A stretch of 63,324 nucleotides of DNA, the filler included, from Acidimicrobiia bacterium (GTDB lineage: Bacteria > Actinomycetota > Acidimicrobiia > Spongiisociales > CAZKJJ01), in NCBI GenBank assembly GCA_046759765.1. It is 20 parts of 20 records of this genome, joined end to end, with 100 filler letters (N's around TTAATTAATTAA, not from the genome) between each part and the next. Parts side by side here need not be neighbours in the genome. Positions count along the whole stretch, not along the records: positions 32,829 to 35,893 come from JBHICV010000234.1; 19 more parts are not named here. One strand, given 5' to 3'. The notes beneath the pieces are model-generated. The model saw nothing but the letters and a program-made list of their open reading frames with translations, searched no databases and was not told the DNA's origin. Every line of letters begins with the position of its first letter. Positions within the stretch are counted from its first letter, which is position 1. Shown in pieces: positions 32,527 to 60,253 of the stretch. Both the position numbers and the translations under genes were made by a program.

Positions 32527-32827
32527 TGGCGTTCACCGACGCAGCTAGCCATCTACGCCGCCGCGCCGGACCGGAGGGAGATGTGCTAGCCATGAGGCTC
32601 GGTCCGATAGCTTTTTGACGGTGAGTCGAGAGCAAATTGCCGGCTGGCTCATTGCTCTGGCCGGATTGGTCGTGCTGGTCGTGTCCGCCTTTGCCGATCA
32701 GCTCGGAATGGGCGACGAAGCCTTCACCNNNNNNNNNNNNNNNNNNNNNNNNNNNNNNNNNNNNNNNNNNNNTTAATTAATTAANNNNNNNNNNNNNNNN
32801 NNNNNNNNNNNNNNNNNNNNNNNNNNN

Positions 32828-33695
32828 NGTTACCCGTATCGGTCCTAGGCTCCCCCGGCAGACGTAATCGGTCCCGCCACCGGCCTCTGGATCTGAGCTT
32901 GGGCTTTGGGTCGGGCAGTCGACGACGCACTCGGTCGTACACCTTCTTCTGAAGGGCCAACAGAGCCTTTTGGCGCTCGAAACCACTAGCTTTCCCGGCG
33001 ATCCCACCAGCTTCCTCCTGGACTTCAGGAGCACACCATTCCTCTTCAATGAGCCCCATAAAGTCGATTTCGCCCTTCTGGTAACGCTCAACAGCCCTCC
33101 GCTTTCGCTCTGAGCGGTTAGCCTTAGCCTTTACGATCAGGCCTGTGAGGGCATGGGGCCGAAATGCCCCGAGCCGTGAAAAGGTCTGCATATGCTTCAG
33201 GGTCTGCCAGGCCTGACTGAACGAGGCGTGCAGAAGGTTGTCACTGACCATTGGGCCGAAGATTCGAACCTCGACCCTCAACCAAGGAGTGTAGGTATCC
33301 TCGCCGTCGTACCACGTCAAGCCCGCCTCGTAGGGGAGCCGGGGGAGAGACTTGTTGGCCGGCACCCACCTGCCGGTGCCTTGGCCACGGCTGTCCATCT
33401 CCTCAACTGCAATCCTCCTTCTGATTCGTTCGAAATCAGTGCTCCCGTCTTCGCGGAAGTAGTCGCAGTAGAAACAGTCCTCCCAGTACTCCAGAAGGTT
33501 CGGTGGCAAGTTCAGACGGCGTAGTTCAGCTTCAGCCGTCGGTCGCACTCGATTGCTGTAGTGGGCTTCGATCCAGGCGACAGCCCTTTCCACCGGCCAG
33601 CGCGGATCATAATCCAATTCCTTCCTGCTCTTGCTGATCGACTCGTGCCACTCGGGCCAGAGATGAAGTGCTCGCTCGAAGGTCTCCCGTTCCAT
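32828..33695 (-). CDS. Hypothetical protein divergent from the mom module (3' end at contig edge)
   Basis: Long open frame with GGAGAGGA RBS; no family recognised. Confidence 0.65.
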
Positions 33696-33892
33696 GTGTG
33701 TCCTCTCCTGCCAAATTATAGGCAACTTTTACGACTAGTGCTTCCCCCCCTTCGAATCGTAGTCGCGTGTGTTATACACGAAGTTGGGGCCTTGAGGAAG
33801 GCTGCTGACGGTGACCGAAGGGAATCTGTTGGAAGCCCAACGCCAAGAGCTAGACAGGGAGACCGGAGGAGAGAGGCATCTCAGACCGGCAC

Positions 33893-34615
33893 ATGGACTA
33901 TGGGGAGCAAGGACAGGAAGCTGGCGCCGGTAGTGTAGGGGTAGCACGGCCCGAAGGCCCTCGGGTAAGGGGCGGTTCGACTCCGACCTCGGCGCTCTAT
34001 CAACTGAAGGTCAGATCTCTGCCGCTTCGCATAGCAAAGGCGCTTCTCGAGAGGCATCACTACCTGAAGTCGATGCCGGGAGGAACGCAGCTAGCCCTTG
34101 GAGTCTTCGTGGGCGCACTACTGCAGGGTGTGCTGACGCTCGGCGTGGGACCGCCGCTGGTATTCAGGCTTGTCGATGGCGCCGGCCCCCGCGACTGCGC
34201 GACGCTTTCGCGCTTCTGGCTGTCGGAGGCACTTCCCCTAAACTCCGAGAGCAGGGTCCTCGGCGTAGTCCTGCGCGCATTGAGGCGACACACTTCACTC
34301 AAGTTCCTGGTCTCCTACGCGGACCCGGCCATGGGGCACCGTGGGGGAATATATCAGGCCACAGGCTGGCTCTACACTGGACTGTCTGAGGCGTCGACTT
34401 TGATTGACCTTGGTGACGGAGTGGCCCGGCATTCTCGGACGGTGGGCCACGCGTTTGGCACCCACTCGATCAGGCACTTTGAGGCACACGACGTTCCGGT
34501 GCGGACCGTCCAACAGGAGCCGAAGCACCGGTACGTGTACTTCATCGACTCGTCGTGGCGAGAGCGCCTAACCGCGCCGGTGTTGCCCTACCCGAAGGAA
34601 GGCGGGGCGCTATGA
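33893..34615 (+). CDS. mom: Mom-family adenine-modification (GNAT-fold) protein
   Basis: HHYLKS, TLSRFWLS..NSESRVL, LVSYADPAMGHRGGIYQATGWLYTG, KHRYVYF, LPYPK. Confidence 0.88.
   Translation: MDYGEQGQEAGAGSVGVARPEGPRVRGGSTPTSALYQLKVRSLPLRIAKALLERHHYLKSMPGGTQLALGVFVGALLQGVLTLGVGPPLVFRLVDGAGPRDCATLSRFWLSEALPLNSESRVLGVVLRALRRHTSLKFLVSYADPAMGHRGGIYQATGWLYTGLSEASTLIDLGDGVARHSRTVGHAFGTHSIRHFEAHDVPVRTVQQEPKHRYVYFIDSSWRERLTAPVLPYPKEGGAL
33924..33996 (+). ncRNA. tRNA-like cloverleaf embedded in the mom 5' coding region
   Basis: Acceptor GCGCCGG/TCGGCGC; TA; D arm GTGT-AGGGGTA-GCAC; GCCCGA-AGGCCC-TCGGGT; T arm GGCGG-TTCGACT-CCG(A)CC. Confidence 0.75.
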
Positions 34616-35250
34616 GAATCGTTGAGATAGCCGTCAGCCAGCTAGTAGCGGCGCGGTGGAACCCGAACCACATGGACGCCCGGATGCTGGCACGACTGCA
34701 GGAGAGTATCTCTCGGTTTGGCGTCGTCGAGAATCTGGTGGCTAGACCCACAGGAAATGGACTTTACGAGGTGCTCTCCGGCAACCAGCGGCTACAGATC
34801 CTGCGAGAGCTCGGTCACCAGATCATTCCGTGTCTGGTTGTGGACCTGGACGATACCCAGGCTCGACTCCTTGCCCAAGCTCTAAACCGGATAGAGGGCG
34901 AAGACGACTTGGGCCTCAAGGCGGAACTAGTGCGCAACGTGCTGAAAGCGGTTCCGCAGACCGATCTCCTTTCGCTGCTACCCGAGACGAAAGATAGCCT
35001 AGAGGCCCTGGTGAGCCTCGGCGAGGCCGACCTGACTGAGCATCTTCGCAATTGGGAGAGAACCCGAGGGGCGAGGCTGCACACACTCCAGCTCCGTCTG
35101 ACCGACACTCAACTCCGTATCGTGCAGCGAGCCCTGGAGATGGCGATGTGCTCACAGACCGCGATGGATGCAGATGGCCAAAACAGGAGGAGCAGGGCGA
35201 TCACGGACATCTGCAGAGCCTATCTGAGCAAGGCGGAGAGAACCAGATGA
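34612..35250 (+). CDS. ParB/Srx N-terminal domain protein
   Basis: WNPN..LQESISRFGVVENLVAR..YEVLSGNQRL..LN. Confidence 0.88.
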   Translation: MRIVEIAVSQLVAARWNPNHMDARMLARLQESISRFGVVENLVARPTGNGLYEVLSGNQRLQILRELGHQIIPCLVVDLDDTQARLLAQALNRIEGEDDLGLKAELVRNVLKAVPQTDLLSLLPETKDSLEALVSLGEADLTEHLRNWERTRGARLHTLQLRLTDTQLRIVQRALEMAMCSQTAMDADGQNRRSRAITDICRAYLSKAERTR

Positions 35251-35465
35251 AGGAGGGCAACGCCTATAGGCGCACCTATAGGGACTCTGAGGTCCCCTGC
35301 ATCATATGCTGCGAACCTCTCGCCGTTGCCCTGGCGAGGGGACGGAAGTCAGGCAAGCCCTCGGTTATGCTCATCTGCCCCAACGACGGACGGCACTTCC
35401 GCGCATTTATCAACGACCGGGACTACGTGCGCCGCGTTGTGGATCTCCTGGAGGAGCGGCGGTGA
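35247..35465 (+). CDS. Small Cys/His (Zn-finger-like) protein
   Basis: CIICCE..CPNDGRHFRAFIND; coupled on both sides by ATGA/GTGA overlaps. Confidence 0.75.
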   Translation: MKEGNAYRRTYRDSEVPCIICCEPLAVALARGRKSGKPSVMLICPNDGRHFRAFINDRDYVRRVVDLLEERR

Positions 35466-35893
35466 GGGTTGCGCTTTACGCACGGGTGTCGACCTCCGAT
35501 AAGGATCAGGACCCGGAAACCCAACTGATCCCGCTTCGGCAGTTCGTTGGCCGCCAGGATGCGTTGGAGGTGCGCAAGGAGTACGTCGATCACGCCCCCG
35601 CGACCGACATGGTCCGTCGGACGGCCTGGCACGAACTCCTGGACGAAGCCGGCAAGCGGCAGTTCGACCTGGTGGTGGTCTGGCGGATGGATCGCGCGTT
35701 CCGGTCGGTGCTGGACGCGGCCACGACGCTGGAGCGGCTGAGAGCCTGGGGCGTCGGACTCCGCTCATACTCGGAGCCCTGGCTAGACACTACCAGCCCC
35801 TTCGGCGAGGCGCTCTACTACATCACGGTGGCATATGCCCAGTTGGAGCGTGGGATCCTCCGGGAGCGGGTTAAGGCTGGAATGGACCGAGCT
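35462..35893 (+). CDS. Serine recombinase (resolvase/PinR-like), 3' partial
   Basis: LYARVST..Q..Q; VVVWRMDRAFRS; AQLERGILRERVKAG. Confidence 0.93.
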
Positions 35894-35993
35894 NNNNNNN
35901 NNNNNNNNNNNNNNNNNNNNNNNNNNNNNNNNNNNNNTTAATTAATTAANNNNNNNNNNNNNNNNNNNNNNNNNNNNNNNNNNNNNNNNNNNN

Positions 35994-37519
35994 GCCTCGC
36001 CGACCGTCTTCATCTCCATGAACAAACGCAAGTAGTCAGGCCCGCCGGCCTTGGCGTTCGAGCCCGACATGTTGAAGCCCCCGAAGGGCTGGCGCCACAC
36101 CAGCGCTCCTGTGATCTTCCGGTTGACGTAAAGGTTGCCGACATGGAAGTCGCGGCGAGCCCTCTCGATCCGGTCGCCGTCCTCAGAGAAGATCCCTCCC
36201 GTGAGGGCATATTCGGTTCCGTTGGCGATTTCGAGGGCATTATCGAAGTCCCGAGCCGAGATCACCGAAAGGACCGGCCCGAATATCTCATGCTGGGCCA
36301 GGCGTGAGTCCGGATCGACTCCGGCAAAGATGGTCGGCTCTATGTAGTAGCCGGCATCCCATGGGCGCCTTCCCCCGATAACGAGGTCCGCCTGCTCCTT
36401 GCCCTTCTCAATCTCAGACCAGATGGCGTCATACTGGGTCTTCGAGATCACCGCGTTCACCGCGTAGTTGTCCTCGGCTGGACCCACCTCGAGAGCCGCC
36501 GCTTTCTCGACCACCCGATCGAGAAGCTCGTCCTGCACCTCCTCGACGACGATCAACCTCGAGCACGCAGAGCACTTCTGGCCCTGGAAGCCGAAAGCCG
36601 ACGTCACTACTCCCGTGGCCGCAGCATCGAGGTCCGCGGTCTCGTCGACCACGATCGCGTCCTTGCCGCCCATCTCCATGTAGGCCCGCTTCAACCAGCG
36701 CTGACCGGCGTGAACCTTGGCGGCGCGTTCGGAGATTCGGAGGCCAACTTCCTTGGAGCCTGTGAAGTTGACGAATCGGGTCGAGGGGTGATCGACCAGC
36801 GTGTCGCCAATGACCGCTCCACCCCCCGGTACCAGGTTCACGACTCCCGGCGGGAATCCGGCCTCTTGGACCGCGTCCATGAAGGCACCGGCAATCAGCG
36901 GGGTGTTCGAGGCGGGCTTCAACACGACTGTGTTTCCGGCGGCCACCGGGCCGATGGTCAGGCCGGTCAGGATCGCCAGCGGGAAATTCCAAGGCGGGAT
37001 CGCTACGCCGGCTCCGATCGGGATGAGAAACGATGTGTCGGTGTCGGTCGGCTGGTAGGGCTGAGCCAGGTCTATCGCCTGGCTGGCGTAGTACTCGCAG
37101 AAGTCGATCGCCTCGGCCGTGTCGGCGTCCGCCTCAATCCAGTTCTTGCCTGCTTCGAGGGTCATCAGAGAGGAGAAGTGGTGCTTGTAGGTCCGGAGCA
37201 CGCCGGCCAGTCGAAGCACATATGCGGCACGATCGTGGGCATCGAGCCTGGACCACTCTCCGAATGCCTGCCACCCGGCCTCGAGGGCGGCTTCGGCATG
37301 CCGCGGCTCGGCCGCGGCCGAAGTGCCGATGACCTCGTTCGGCGCGCAGGGGTTGATACTCCGGATCTCCTCTGCCGTCTCGACCTCCTCACCGCCGATC
37401 ACCAGCTTCATGTGTTGGTCGAGCTGGCCGCGATGATCGGCGATGGCTTCCCGATAGGCCTTCTCCTGATCGGAGTCCGTGAAGTCGGTCAAAGGCTCGT
37501 TGGCAAACTCGTTCGGCAT
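35994..37519 (-). CDS. pruA: 1-pyrroline-5-carboxylate dehydrogenase (3' end clipped)
   Basis: FANEP, EAIDFCEYY, PPWNFP, FTGSKEVG, EMGGK, FQGQKCSACSR, KAGGPDYL. Confidence 0.93.
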
Positions 37520-54569: not shown

Positions 54570-57218
54570 TCAGGTAGAGGTTGTCGAGTCCGTCGTGTGT
54601 GCAAGGAGTGCCGCTGCCGCGAGCTCGGTGGCGTCTTCGGGGAGGCTTTGTCTTCCTTCCTGGAAGTGGCGATCGAAGGTGGAGGCGCCTAGTTGCTGGT
54701 AGGCGTCAGCTGTGACTTGATCATGCCAGGCGCGCTCGAAGGGTCGTACTCCGGTTCCGATGTGCTCTTCCCGTAGCGCTTCGACGGAGCCGAGAAGTCG
54801 GGCGGCTCGCTCGGGGTGTCCCTCTTTGAGCGCCCACAGCGCTATGTGGTCGAGGCAGTGAGCGAGGCACTGTACGAAGCCGGCTTCCCGGTACTGGCCG
54901 ACCGCTTCCGTGAAGTGCGTTTGCGCCTGTTCCGTGCGCCCGGCGAAGTGGGCTCGGAGTCCGTAAGCCTCGGCGGCGTGGGCTTTTATGAGGGGTGCTC
55001 CGGTCTCCTCGCCCAGGCTCTCGAGTTGGGAGGCAAACCGCTCGGCGTTGGGCGGGTCCCCGCGCTGAAACTCCCAGAGGACCAGCGCCCACAGACTCCG
55101 GGTGAGACCGGTGGGATCCCAGATTGTCTGGAACGTCTTCAGGGCCGAGGTGAGAAGCCGAGGCACCCGTTCGGCATCGGTCTCCCACATAGCGGCAGCC
55201 AGATCGAGCTGGGCCCGGGCTCTGGCTGACGGATCGTCCACCGCCTCAAAGAGTTCCAGGCTCCGTTCTAAGACCGGCGCCGCAGCCCGGGCATCACCTT
55301 GGAATATCAGGAGCTCACCGCGGACGGCCAACGCCGGAGCCAGGATCTCCGGAGCGGATTCGCCCGCCGAGAGCAGCTCGTCAAGCCAGTATGCGCCTTC
55401 CCTCACCGCGCTGAGGATGAGAAACAGCTCGAGTGCTGTGAGCAGCCGCAGTCCGGTTTCGGGTTCTCCGTGTTCTAGGGAGCGTTCCAGTACGGCACGG
55501 ATGTCATCGAAGGTAGCGTTAATCCGGCCGAGCCAGAGTCGCATCTCGGGACCGACCATCCGCTTCGTCGCTTCCTCGGCGAAGTCAAGGACCCAACCAG
55601 TGTGCGCCTCCTCGATTCGGGGCAAGTCCCCAGATTCGGCTAGGCGGGTTCGGGCGTAATGGCGGATGGTGTCGAGCATCCGGTAGCGAACGTCGTCTTG
55701 GTCACGGACCACCGCCAGTAGCGATCTGTCGACCAGACCGGTAACCACATCCAGTATCTGATCTGCTTCGATATCGTCTGCGGCTGCCACCCGCTCGGCC
55801 GCCGACAGATCGAAGGAGCCGGCGAACACTCCCAGACGGGAGAAGACGACCTGTTCTGTCTTGTTGAGCAGGTCGTAGCTCCATCCCACTGTGGCTTCCA
55901 GAGTCTGCTGACGGGGAAGCGCAGTCCGACTTCCCCCCGACAGCACTGTCAAGCGGTCCTCCAACCGACCGGCGATGCTCTCGACAGAGAGGGAACGGAC
56001 CCGAGTTGCGGCAAGCTCGATGGCCAGCGGCAGGCCATCCACGCGGCGGCAGATAGCGACGACCGACGGAGCGGTTCTCTCGGACAGCTCGAAGCCAGGA
56101 TCGGCCGCACGGGCACGTTCGGCGAACAACATCACCGCCTCTGGAGGATTCCCAAGGCTTACTGAGTCGTCAGCTTCGGGGAGCATCATGGGCGGGACCT
56201 GCCAACTCACCTCTCCCGGGACGTTCAAGGGTTCGCGACTGGTGGCCAACACCCGCACTCCCGCGGCTGCTCCCAGCAGCGTGTCGGTGAGCTCGGCGGC
56301 GGCGTCGATCAGATGCTCACAGTTATCCAACACCAACAGCAGGTCCCGCCGTTCCAGGTAGCCGACCAGAGTTGCCATGGTGGGCTGTCCCGGCTGCTCG
56401 GGTACACCCAACGCGGCTCGTACCGCCTGCGGAACCAGCTCGGCATCAGCCAACCCCGCCAGCTCGGCCAGCCACACCCCATCGGGGTGCCGCTCGATCC
56501 GATCAGCGGCCACCTGGAGGGCCAGCCGGGTCTTCCCCACACCGCCGGGGCCCACCAACGTCACCAACCGCGAGGTGTCCACCACCTCCCGTATTTTTTC
56601 CCGCGTCTCTTCTCTGCCCAGGAACGACGACAACTGAACGGGGAGATTGTTGGGAGAGCCCTCCAGGGAATGCAGCGGCGGAAACTGGTCCGGTAGACCA
56701 TCGACGACCAACTGAGAGAGGTGCTCCGGATGCGCCAGATCCTTAAGCGAGTGGTCGCCCAAGTGTCGAAGGAAGACACCAGCAGGAAGCCTGTGCTCGA
56801 CGACCGTTGCGGTGGAGGCGGAAAGCACGACCTGCCCTCCGTGCGCGGCATCAGCCACCCGGGCAGCGCGATGCACATCGATACCCACATAGCTGTCACC
56901 CCCAAGGGTTCCCTCACCTGTATGGATACCCATGCGCACCCGCACCTCACCCTCCGGCGGCCAAGAATGGGCGGCTAGGGCCCGCTGAGCGGCCACCGCC
57001 GCCCGTACCGCATCCGGGGCAGAAGCGAACACCACGAAGAAACTGTCTCCCTCAGTGCTGACCTCGACTCCGTCAGCCTCCGCGATCGCCTGCCGGATCA
57101 GCCTCGAATGGATCTCCAGGAGGTCCTGGAACTCGTCACCGTGCCTCTGCAAGAGCCGAGTGGATCCCTCAATGTCGGTAAACAGGAACGTGACCGTTCC
57201 GGCTGGCAGTGCCCCCAT
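54570..57218 (-). CDS. Class III cyclase + STAND/NB-ARC ATPase + TPR protein
   Basis: TFLFTDIEGST, EGDSFF; GPGGVGKTRL, LVLDNCEHL, DGLPLAIELA. Confidence 0.92.
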   Translation of the reverse strand: MGALPAGTVTFLFTDIEGSTRLLQRHGDEFQDLLEIHSRLIRQAIAEADGVEVSTEGDSFFVVFASAPDAVRAAVAAQRALAAHSWPPEGEVRVRMGIHTGEGTLGGDSYVGIDVHRAARVADAAHGGQVVLSASTATVVEHRLPAGVFLRHLGDHSLKDLAHPEHLSQLVVDGLPDQFPPLHSLEGSPNNLPVQLSSFLGREETREKIREVVDTSRLVTLVGPGGVGKTRLALQVAADRIERHPDGVWLAELAGLADAELVPQAVRAALGVPEQPGQPTMATLVGYLERRDLLLVLDNCEHLIDAAAELTDTLLGAAAGVRVLATSREPLNVPGEVSWQVPPMMLPEADDSVSLGNPPEAVMLFAERARAADPGFELSERTAPSVVAICRRVDGLPLAIELAATRVRSLSVESIAGRLEDRLTVLSGGSRTALPRQQTLEATVGWSYDLLNKTEQVVFSRLGVFAGSFDLSAAERVAAADDIEADQILDVVTGLVDRSLLAVVRDQDDVRYRMLDTIRHYARTRLAESGDLPRIEEAHTGWVLDFAEEATKRMVGPEMRLWLGRINATFDDIRAVLERSLEHGEPETGLRLLTALELFLILSAVREGAYWLDELLSAGESAPEILAPALAVRGELLIFQGDARAAAPVLERSLELFEAVDDPSARARAQLDLAAAMWETDAERVPRLLTSALKTFQTIWDPTGLTRSLWALVLWEFQRGDPPNAERFASQLESLGEETGAPLIKAHAAEAYGLRAHFAGRTEQAQTHFTEAVGQYREAGFVQCLAHCLDHIALWALKEGHPERAARLLGSVEALREEHIGTGVRPFERAWHDQVTADAYQQLGASTFDRHFQEGRQSLPEDATELAAAALLAHTTDSTTST

Positions 57219-59977: not shown

Positions 59978-60168
59978 GTTCTGCTCCTGGTCCGAGCCCC
60001 GGCCACTCCATCGGCCTGGAGCCTCTCTTGCATCTGTCGAGTCCGCCTCCCTGCGGCCCGACAGTGTGCTGCCGGCCGCCACGTTAGCCGTGCCTGGCCG
60101 AAGTGTCGCTTCGGTTCCCGAACCGGGCTCACCCTTCGGCTCCCGTAACAAAGAAGGGCCTTGAACAG

Positions 60169-60253
60169 TGCGGGCGGCGGGACTCGAACCCACATGGGCG
60201 AAAAGCCCACCAGATCCTAAATCTGGCGCCTGTGCCAGTTCGGCTACGCCCGC
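60169..60253 (-). tRNA. tRNA-Leu(TAG)
   Basis: GCGGGCG..CCAGA-TTTAGGA-TCTGG, long variable arm, GGTTCGAGTCC. Confidence 0.95.

Follow-up and report, generated by a model that had tools for sequence, protein, structure and literature searches.

Why should the opening codons of a gene for a DNA-modifying enzyme also take the shape of a transfer RNA (tRNA)? The question is raised by a 63,324-nucleotide stretch of DNA from an Acidimicrobiia bacterium (assembly GCA_046759765.1; 20 parts of the genome joined end to end), hereafter the window, in which a homologue of mom (33893..34615, plus strand, 240 amino acids) contains a tRNA-Gly-like element of 76 nucleotides (nt) at 33924..33999 on the same strand. 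The element occupies nt 32-107 of the open reading frame (ORF), corresponds to Mom residues 11-36 and runs from G1 to a CUA in the place where its relatives carry CCA; it was recognized from its sequence, a family model and covariation. McMurdie et al. (2011, BMC Genomics 12:287; PMC3146451) described, in 16 integration modules of Dehalococcoides ssrA islands and in a marine fosmid, a tRNA-like locus of 76 bp that falls within the initial 150 bp of the gene for a Mom homologue; it folds like tRNA-Gly and has a 5-nt loop with the anticodon 'DCC', and their account of the locus leaves its function unassigned. An earlier note on the window had mentioned this pseudo-tRNA of the Dehalococcoides ssrA modules as one to which no function had been given, which agrees with that account. 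On balance, we think that the element is probably Mom's own glycine donor, an RNA that would be processed from the mom transcript, glycylated and kept out of decoding.

A cloverleaf maintained at the level of RNA

In the window copy, whose arms all lie on the plus strand, the 5' strand of the acceptor stem (33924..33930) pairs with 33989-33995 over 7 bp, the seventh being G:U, and G1:C72, C2:G71 and G3:C70 are kept. T8-A9 (U8-A9 in the RNA) is present. The D arm (33933..33947) consists of GTGT paired with GCAC (33933-36 with 33944-47) around a 7-nt loop, AGGGGTA, that includes a run of G. The anticodon-like arm (33949..33966) has 6 bp (33949-54 with 33961-66) closing the loop AGGCCC (33955-60), or, in an alternative pairing of the same 33949..33966 segment, 5 bp closing the 8-nt loop AAGGCCCT; the loop is thus 6 nt (or 8) and lacks U33. 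A variable region of 4 nt leads to the T arm (33971..33988), which reads GGCGG / TTCGACT / CCG-A-CC with a bulged A at 33986. The 3' strand and end (33989..33999) comprise the acceptor strand itself (33989-33995), the discriminator U73 at 33996 and CUA at 33997-33999, replacing CCA. The stems, T8-A9, the AGGCCC loop, the bulged A and the TCTA end had all been pointed out in the earlier note and are all found in the sequence, and its in-frame reading of the same bases as Mom residues AGSVGVARPEGPRVRGGSTPTSAL is correct on translation.

The element is widespread among relatives of this gene. A protein search returned 1951 Mom homologues, and a simple regular expression found the translated 3' end of the element in 107 of the 120 best. 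A single scan of species-representative genomes yielded 58 mom loci, mostly from metagenome-assembled genomes (MAGs) of Dehalococcoidia, SAR202 or other Chloroflexota, with four MAGs labelled Bacillota and one Solirubrobacterales MAG; 48 of the 58 carry the element at the same position and in the same frame. With the window copy this gave a structure alignment of 49 copies (47 distinct), 21 base pairs and 960 pair cells. Standard pairs fill 98.1% of these cells, against 78.4 +/- 0.9% in shuffled alignments (none of 500 shuffles reached the observed value), and pairing drops to 34-49% when the 3' partners are slid by one to three columns. Both sides have changed in 13 of the 21 pairs, in 162 cells. 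In the acceptor stem, pairs 4:69 and 7:66 covary; the D arm is paired in 98.9% of cells, with double changes in two of its four pairs; compensatory changes affect all five pairs tested in the anticodon-like arm and four of five in the T arm. RNAalifold applied to the 49 copies predicted the cloverleaf de novo, bulge included. A covariance model (R1) built from this alignment, the window's own copy among the 49, finds the element as the sole match in the window (73.6 bits, E 5.9e-14); scores in the family range from 59 to 90, and only 4 of the 48 other copies fall below that of the window. On this comparative evidence the cloverleaf in the window is real and more than a chance resemblance. The tertiary pair 8:14 (33931 and 33937 in the window) was also looked at: it is U:A in 28, G:G in 8 and A:U in 4 of the 47 distinct copies, a pattern that hints at covariation beyond secondary structure.

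We also compared the codons of the element with those of the rest of mom in 44 coding sequences, four truncated ones having been dropped. Amino-acid entropy is higher in the element (1.81 vs. 1.27 bits) and entropy at third codon positions is lower (1.06 vs. 1.61 bits). When third positions are considered given the majority residue, in families of at least four codons, the values are 0.71 bits in the element and 1.71 bits elsewhere (Mann-Whitney p = 1e-11). AlphaFold2, run with 60 homologues, gives Mom residues 1-32 no secondary structure, with a predicted local distance difference test (pLDDT) of 44-58; in means over 10-residue blocks, residues 31-40 average 72 and the domain exceeds 90 from about residue 40. 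Synonymous sites are thus the more conserved and the peptide the less, and therefore selection, as judged from these alignments, is acting on the RNA, with the encoded peptide as a passenger. The earlier note had held that its proposal would fall if homologues lacked compensatory changes and a conserved peptide explained everything; instead such changes are plentiful, and of the two layers it is the peptide that is less conserved.

Judged alone, the window element makes a weak case. ARAGORN makes no tRNA call at the element, and the Rfam tRNA model RF00005 leaves it unmatched at the gathering score and also at E<=10 in an 801-nt search. Its minimum-energy fold is a rod at -37.4 kcal/mol, with the cloverleaf at -29.7 kcal/mol and z = -1.81; among the 49 relatives, the three-hairpin cloverleaf is the minimum-energy fold in 28. 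We do not count the failure of the two programs against the element, because they mostly miss its relatives too. ARAGORN called 12 of the 48 other copies, typing seven as tRNA-Gly (CCC, UCC or ACC, with a 7-nt loop), four as undetermined with 'anticodons' of 2 or 4 nt and one as Trp, and the Rfam gathering score was reached by 3 of 20 scanned copies, the other 17 lying below it. Of the checks named in the earlier note, then, ARAGORN and RF00005 are both negative at the site, and covariation across homologues is positive.

Glycine identity on a non-canonical body

What is most strictly kept in the family is the acceptor end. Acceptor pairs 1-3 are GCG/CGC in all 49 copies, U73 and C56 are each present in 49 of 49, and a CC dinucleotide occurs in the anticodon hairpin loop of every copy. 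The 3' end is UCCA, read as Leu-His/Gln, in 47 of 49, the exceptions being the window (UCUA) and one other locus (L028, UCCG). The determinants recognized by eubacterial glycyl-tRNA synthetase (GlyRS) are G1:C72, C2:G71, C35, C36 and U73 (PMC10464925), and the window copy has all five, with G1:C72, C2:G71, U73 and GCC/CC in the loop, the numbering of positions 35 and 36 being uncertain in a loop that is not of 7 nt.

The rest of the molecule is less regular. In the T stem, 47 of the 49 copies retain a bulged A that lies between positions 63 and 64. The predicted anticodon hairpin loop spans 3 to 10 nt; 20 copies have a loop of 5 nt, 16 one of 6 nt, seven one of 3 nt and only two of the 49 the usual 7 nt. 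Position 55 is G in 17 of 49 and C in three, and U8 is kept in 31 of 49. The window copy departs from the canonical tRNA as defined by a 7-nt anticodon loop with U33 and a purine at 37, a regular 5-bp T stem, and a CCA that is encoded or can be added. As the alignment presents it, the element combines a glycine-type acceptor end that does not vary with a body that is relaxed. The view of the earlier note that this is not an ordinary decoding tRNA is plausible, given a loop of 6 or 8 nt without U33 in the window and, across the family, 36 of 49 hairpins that close to loops of 5 or 6 nt. Selection on the RNA and glycine identity are, by these comparisons, documented here on a much wider sample than in 2011.

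The Mom protein and its translation through the element

The Pfam family Mom (PF25680) matches residues 38-235 of the window protein (E 8e-53). Since the match begins at residue 38, the element encodes an N-terminal extension ahead of the domain. The structure of Mom from phage Mu (PDB 8bv8) aligns to residues 37-235 (E 9e-18); this is a crystal of the delta-10 S124A protein, and Mu numbering was mapped through it, chain position i being Mu residue i+9. Silva et al. (2026, Nat Commun 17:4787; PMC13219725) report that Mu Mom, a GNAT enzyme, moves glycine from Gly-tRNAGly to the N6 of adenine in double-stranded DNA, and that the product rearranges on the base to N6-carbamoylmethyl-adenine. All three E. 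coli tRNAGly isoacceptors were accepted and Gly-tRNAAla was rejected, and a terminal riboadenosine was required. The residues proposed for the active site of Mu Mom are H58, Y59, R111, S124, D149, R151 and Y159, with R151 essential in Mu (PMC13219725). The window Mom keeps six of the seven equivalents, namely H58, Y59, R111, S124, D149 and Y159. As a separate observation, the family consensus around Ala146 of the window Mom is YADPAQGH, with no Arg at that place, and the nearby His149 is invariant.

The ORF is open through the element in all 48 cases in which this was followed (the window plus 47 loci), and an in-frame ATG, GTG or TTG lies upstream of the element in 46 of the 48. The start is within 9 nt of G1 in 26 of 48, the commonest form being ATG-N-G1 (14 cases), and 11 of 48 offer no other start over the 75 nt that follow the element. 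In 29 of 46 cases the nearest start has a Shine-Dalgarno (SD)-like motif ahead of it. From the open frame, the upstream starts and the SD-like motifs it follows that Mom is translated through the tRNA, with the pre-tRNA's 5' leader serving as ribosome-binding site of the messenger RNA (mRNA). In the window, the ATG at 33893 is the only in-frame ATG, GTG or TTG upstream of the element.

A proposed private glycine donor for Mom

The chemistry reported for Mu suggests how these facts may be joined. The mom transcript would fold into a cloverleaf just past the start codon, a structure established by covariation. RNase P and 3' processing would then free an RNA of about 76 nt, and for the window copy the CCA-adding enzyme would supply the CCA that is not encoded. 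The host GlyRS would load it with glycine; charging is proposed because G1:C72, C2:G71, U73 and C35/C36 are kept. Mom made from the same gene would use this Gly-tRNA to glycylate adenine N6 in double-stranded DNA, leading to N6-carbamoylmethyl-adenine as with the Mu enzyme. EF-Tu (elongation factor Tu) specificity resides in the T-stem pairs 49-65, 50-64 and 51-63 (PMC3239215), and the bulged A falls within the pairs so read; together with the closed anticodon loop it may, by analogy, exclude the RNA from translation. The result would be a private glycine carrier, resembling the non-proteogenic tRNAGly that serves the Fem transferases of staphylococci. As a side effect, cleavage at G1 would remove the start codon from the ORF and so keep Mom low; with its start codon cut off at G1, each transcript would yield either the tRNA or Mom.

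Since the Mu enzyme works with Gly-tRNAGly (PMC13219725), this explanation is more specific than the readings offered in the earlier note. A dedicated Gly-tRNA donor for Mom seems to us the most likely account; it is newly drawn from the biochemistry of 2026 and can be tested. More tentatively, and at somewhat less than an even chance, the same nucleotides, the first 25 or so codons of mom, may encode both the start of the enzyme and its private, non-decoding RNA cofactor, with an RNase P cut shortly past the start codon setting the ratio of cofactor to enzyme for a toxic activity. Processing by RNase P or Z that limits Mom, as the earlier note had suggested, is thereby retained as a predicted side effect and not as the main function. 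Its other suggestions for a main function, a cis switch or a decoy for anticodon nucleases, leave the invariant GlyRS set and the encoded CCA unexplained.

Several observations weigh against a dedicated donor. Mu Mom makes do with the ordinary tRNAGly of its host, which means that the enzyme has no a priori need of a private tRNA, and the equivalent of Mu R151 is Ala146 in the window Mom (34328-34330). Among 231 phage records with a Mom homologue, the four that were checked (pAEv1818, SD-13_S19, SfMu and Pita2) have no element in mom; the best R1 score at these four loci is 11.7 bits and ARAGORN reports nothing there, in a sample too small to stand for all phages. The element is also absent from 10 of the 58 scanned loci (L023, L035, L036, L037, L041, L045, L048, L050, L056 and L057). 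The tertiary core is non-canonical, because position 55 is G in so many copies and U8 is kept in fewer than two-thirds of them, and a tight anticodon hairpin might hinder the reading of C35/C36 by GlyRS. Processing would also carry a cost, the destruction of the mom mRNA. Other points concern the window copy in particular: it has no encoded CCA, its cloverleaf lies 7.7 kcal/mol above its minimum-energy fold, its start codon is placed atypically, 31 nt upstream of the element and without an SD-like motif, and neither a DsiB-like large recombinase nor a transfer-messenger RNA (tmRNA) was found in the window.

Alternative explanations

The same features might serve mainly to control mom in cis, as the earlier note proposed. 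The cloverleaf would hide the first codons, or a cut by RNase P or Z would inactivate the mRNA, limiting the toxic enzyme and the downstream recombinases, and the released RNA would have no job. Start codons within 9 nt of G1 (26 of 48) and SD-like motifs just upstream (29 of 46) are what such control would use, a stable fold at +4 would impede initiation, and Mu mom is itself under translational control by RNA structure. However, a plain hairpin would suffice for this, and G1:C72, C2:G71, U73 and the CC of the loop (49 of 49 each), as well as UCCA (47 of 49), would go unexplained, as would a glycine specificity that matches the amino acid Mom transfers; in the window, moreover, the start is 31 nt away. 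We regard cis control as the main function as unlikely. A related possibility is that the element is an operator that imitates the enzyme's substrate: Mom, or GlyRS, would attach to the tRNA-like fold within the mom mRNA and repress translation, much as threonyl-tRNA synthetase represses translation by binding the thrS mRNA. Mom recognizes features of tRNAGly, probably at the acceptor end, and in many loci the acceptor end abuts the start codon. But Mom needs a free terminal riboadenosine, which an internal CCA does not offer, and none of the results here speaks for binding, so that we consider an operator of this kind quite improbable.

An ordinary decoding tRNA-Gly that the island brings along to supplement translation, its overlap with mom being mere genome economy, has in its favour the 7 of 48 copies that ARAGORN types as tRNA-Gly with a 7-nt loop and the 3 of 20 that reach the Rfam gathering score. 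The anticodon hairpin, however, is predicted to be closed to 3-6 nt in 44 of 49 copies, and those inspected by eye lack U33. A bulged A interrupts the T stem of 47 of the 49, 20 have a base other than U at position 55, 17 of the 20 scanned copies are below the Rfam threshold and the window loop is of 6 or 8 nt; decoding is therefore very improbable. Mobile elements do carry tRNAs against host anticodon nucleases and other tRNA-targeting defences, and the element might be a decoy or a spare of that sort. No computed result favours this, and the anticodon loop, which such nucleases attack, varies more in size (3 to 10 nt) and sequence than any other part of the element, whereas the acceptor end is invariant; we give the idea hardly any credence. 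We give still less to the idea that the element is a dead relic, left by an old insertion beside a tRNA-Gly gene or copied from the ssrA attachment site, and retained solely for its peptide. That the element is always translated, with the ORF open in 48 of 48, would agree with a relic, but the peptide varies more than the remainder of Mom and is predicted to be disordered, conservation is stronger at synonymous sites, compensatory changes are seen in 13 of 21 pairs, and the tmRNA 3' ends of 17 loci share with the element a local score of only 6-10 over 45 nt. As far as sequence tells, covariation and codon entropy refute the relic. The comparison with tmRNA 3' ends had been made for an origin of the element from the attachment site, and that origin was rejected on the same low score.

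Distribution and history of the element

The association of mom with a translated tRNA is also found in a distant clade. In an Actinomycetota MAG (locus L054), a Mom only 30% identical to that of the window has an embedded tRNA-Gly at 580-655 that possesses a canonical D arm and passes the Rfam threshold. Within this second clade (the L054 Mom and 120 homologues), the regular expression found a translated tRNA at the start of 13 of the 121 proteins, and three more were recognized by eye (P0127, P0129 and P0134); the remaining proteins begin directly at the domain. The second-clade proteins with an in-frame tRNA-Gly start are P0121-P0134, P0141, P0145 and P0232.

A quick and weakly supported tree of Mom was computed from 52 rows, those with a truncated Mom having been dropped (L048, L051, L053 and L055-L058). 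The element is present in 45 rows and absent in seven; the pattern needs five changes, of which the starred branches force at least two. It suggests repeated loss and gives no order of events. From the distant second clade and the changes on the tree, the association is either old or recurrent, and both would be in keeping with enzyme and tRNA being functionally linked.

In one locus (L018), the element at 774-849 (83 bits) is intact, and 24 nt further on lies a second, degenerate one at 873-948 (33.9 bits) that heads the mom ORF; proteins P0038 and P0111 have the same doubled N-terminus. These doubled N-termini suggest remnants of tandem or nested modules.

The integration module around mom

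Downstream of mom on the plus strand are a gene with a ParB_N domain (34555..35250; Pfam PF02195, E 1e-10), homologues of which adjoin mom in 52 of the 58 loci, and a small serine recombinase of the DsiA type (35306..35941; Pfam Resolvase, E 1.8e-27), with homologues in 41 of 58, at which the module ends. Beyond the recombinase, an unrelated aldehyde dehydrogenase gene on the other strand abuts it at 35942. Directly upstream of mom lies an ORF of 314 amino acids without a Pfam family (32781-33725, minus strand); we place it outside the conserved module because a homologue occurs near mom in only one of the 58 loci (L033, 46% identity). The guanine plus cytosine (GC) content of the module is about 60%. 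A scan of 33400-36100 for promoters and terminators returned no promoter-like site and three terminator-like sites where 1.7 are expected, and is uninformative.

A full module is made up of dsiB, dsiA, recF, parB and mom beside ssrA, with a direct repeat; in the window only mom, parB and the DsiA-like gene were found. In related loci a tmRNA lies 3-5 kb downstream on the opposite strand in 20 of 58. The window module may thus be a stranded remnant, though its mom, parB and recombinase ORFs are intact, and its copy of the element may be less active or decaying, because the module is truncated and the encoded CCA has been lost.

Elsewhere in the window, ARAGORN calls an 89-nt 'tRNA-Val (gac)' at 55326-55414 on the minus strand; as an Rfam search of 55100-55650 comes back empty at E<=1, this is probably a false call. 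Both programs agree on a tRNA-Leu at 60168-60253.

Significance and comparison with known systems

Were the donor function confirmed, the element would stand as the first tRNA dedicated to modifying DNA, and the few tRNAs set aside for tasks outside the ribosome would then range from cell-wall synthesis to DNA modification. It would also explain a pseudo-tRNA that has stood as an oddity in print since 2011, the chemistry of Mom having been solved only in a 2023 preprint and the 2026 paper, and it would give independent evolutionary confirmation that Mom-family enzymes other than that of Mu use Gly-tRNAGly. The locus would be a rare case of same-strand, in-frame overlap between a tRNA gene and a protein gene, maintained over a deep divergence (Chloroflexota, MAGs labelled Bacillota and an Actinomycetota MAG), and its dual coding offers a clean natural example of an RNA fold and a reading frame kept together. 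The same reading predicts N6-carbamoylmethyl-adenine in the DNA of islands in organohalide-respiring Dehalococcoidia, and would bear on how the islands that move vinyl-chloride reductase genes survive restriction during transfer. Our full-text literature search, which left most subscription papers outside its reach, returned no paper that links the mom pseudo-tRNA to the chemistry of Mom. Karambelkar (2020) raised glycyl-tRNA only to exclude glycyl-adenine as the product, and neither Silva et al. (2026; PMC13219725) nor its 2023 preprint mentions Dehalococcoides, 'embedded' or 'tRNA-like'.

The closest known system is the locus of McMurdie et al. As they describe it, it resembles that of the window in being a 76-nt tRNA-like sequence in the first 150 bp of mom with NCC in a small anticodon loop, and in both cases parB and a small serine recombinase adjoin mom. 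The window differs from the published modules in having no DsiB, RecF or ssrA junction, in CUA instead of CCA and in a GC content of about 60%. The likeness to the original 16 Dehalococcoides copies is by published description; we conclude that the window element belongs to the family described in 2011.

Mu Mom is of the same Pfam family and shares six of the seven proposed active-site residues with the window Mom. Unlike the window gene, mom of Mu and of the four phage loci checked contains no tRNA, Mu uses the tRNAGly of its host, and its R151 is Ala in the window protein. Phage Mom homologues are less than 60% identical to the window Mom, and 27-38% identical among the 30 matches listed.

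In Staphylococcus aureus, a non-proteogenic tRNAGly binds EF-Tu poorly and is preferred by FmhB (Rietmeyer et al. 2020; PMC7826273). The staphylococcal tRNAs are like the proposed donor in being reserved for GNAT-fold aminoacyl transferases (FmhB, FemA and FemB) and in their deviant D and T regions; poor use by EF-Tu and the ribosome was reported for them and would be expected, by extension, of the mom element. In contrast, they come from free-standing genes and have normal anticodon loops, and the acceptor of their glycine is a peptidoglycan precursor and not DNA. The link is one of analogy rather than membership, because that tRNA lineage is restricted to staphylococci.

A chargeable, tRNA-shaped module within a longer coding RNA has precedents in the aminoacylatable tRNA-like structures of mRNAs and viral RNAs, and in tmRNA. 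Those structures are either 3'-terminal or form part of a dedicated RNA, whereas the mom element lies in frame in the 5' coding sequence of the enzyme that is presumed to use it.

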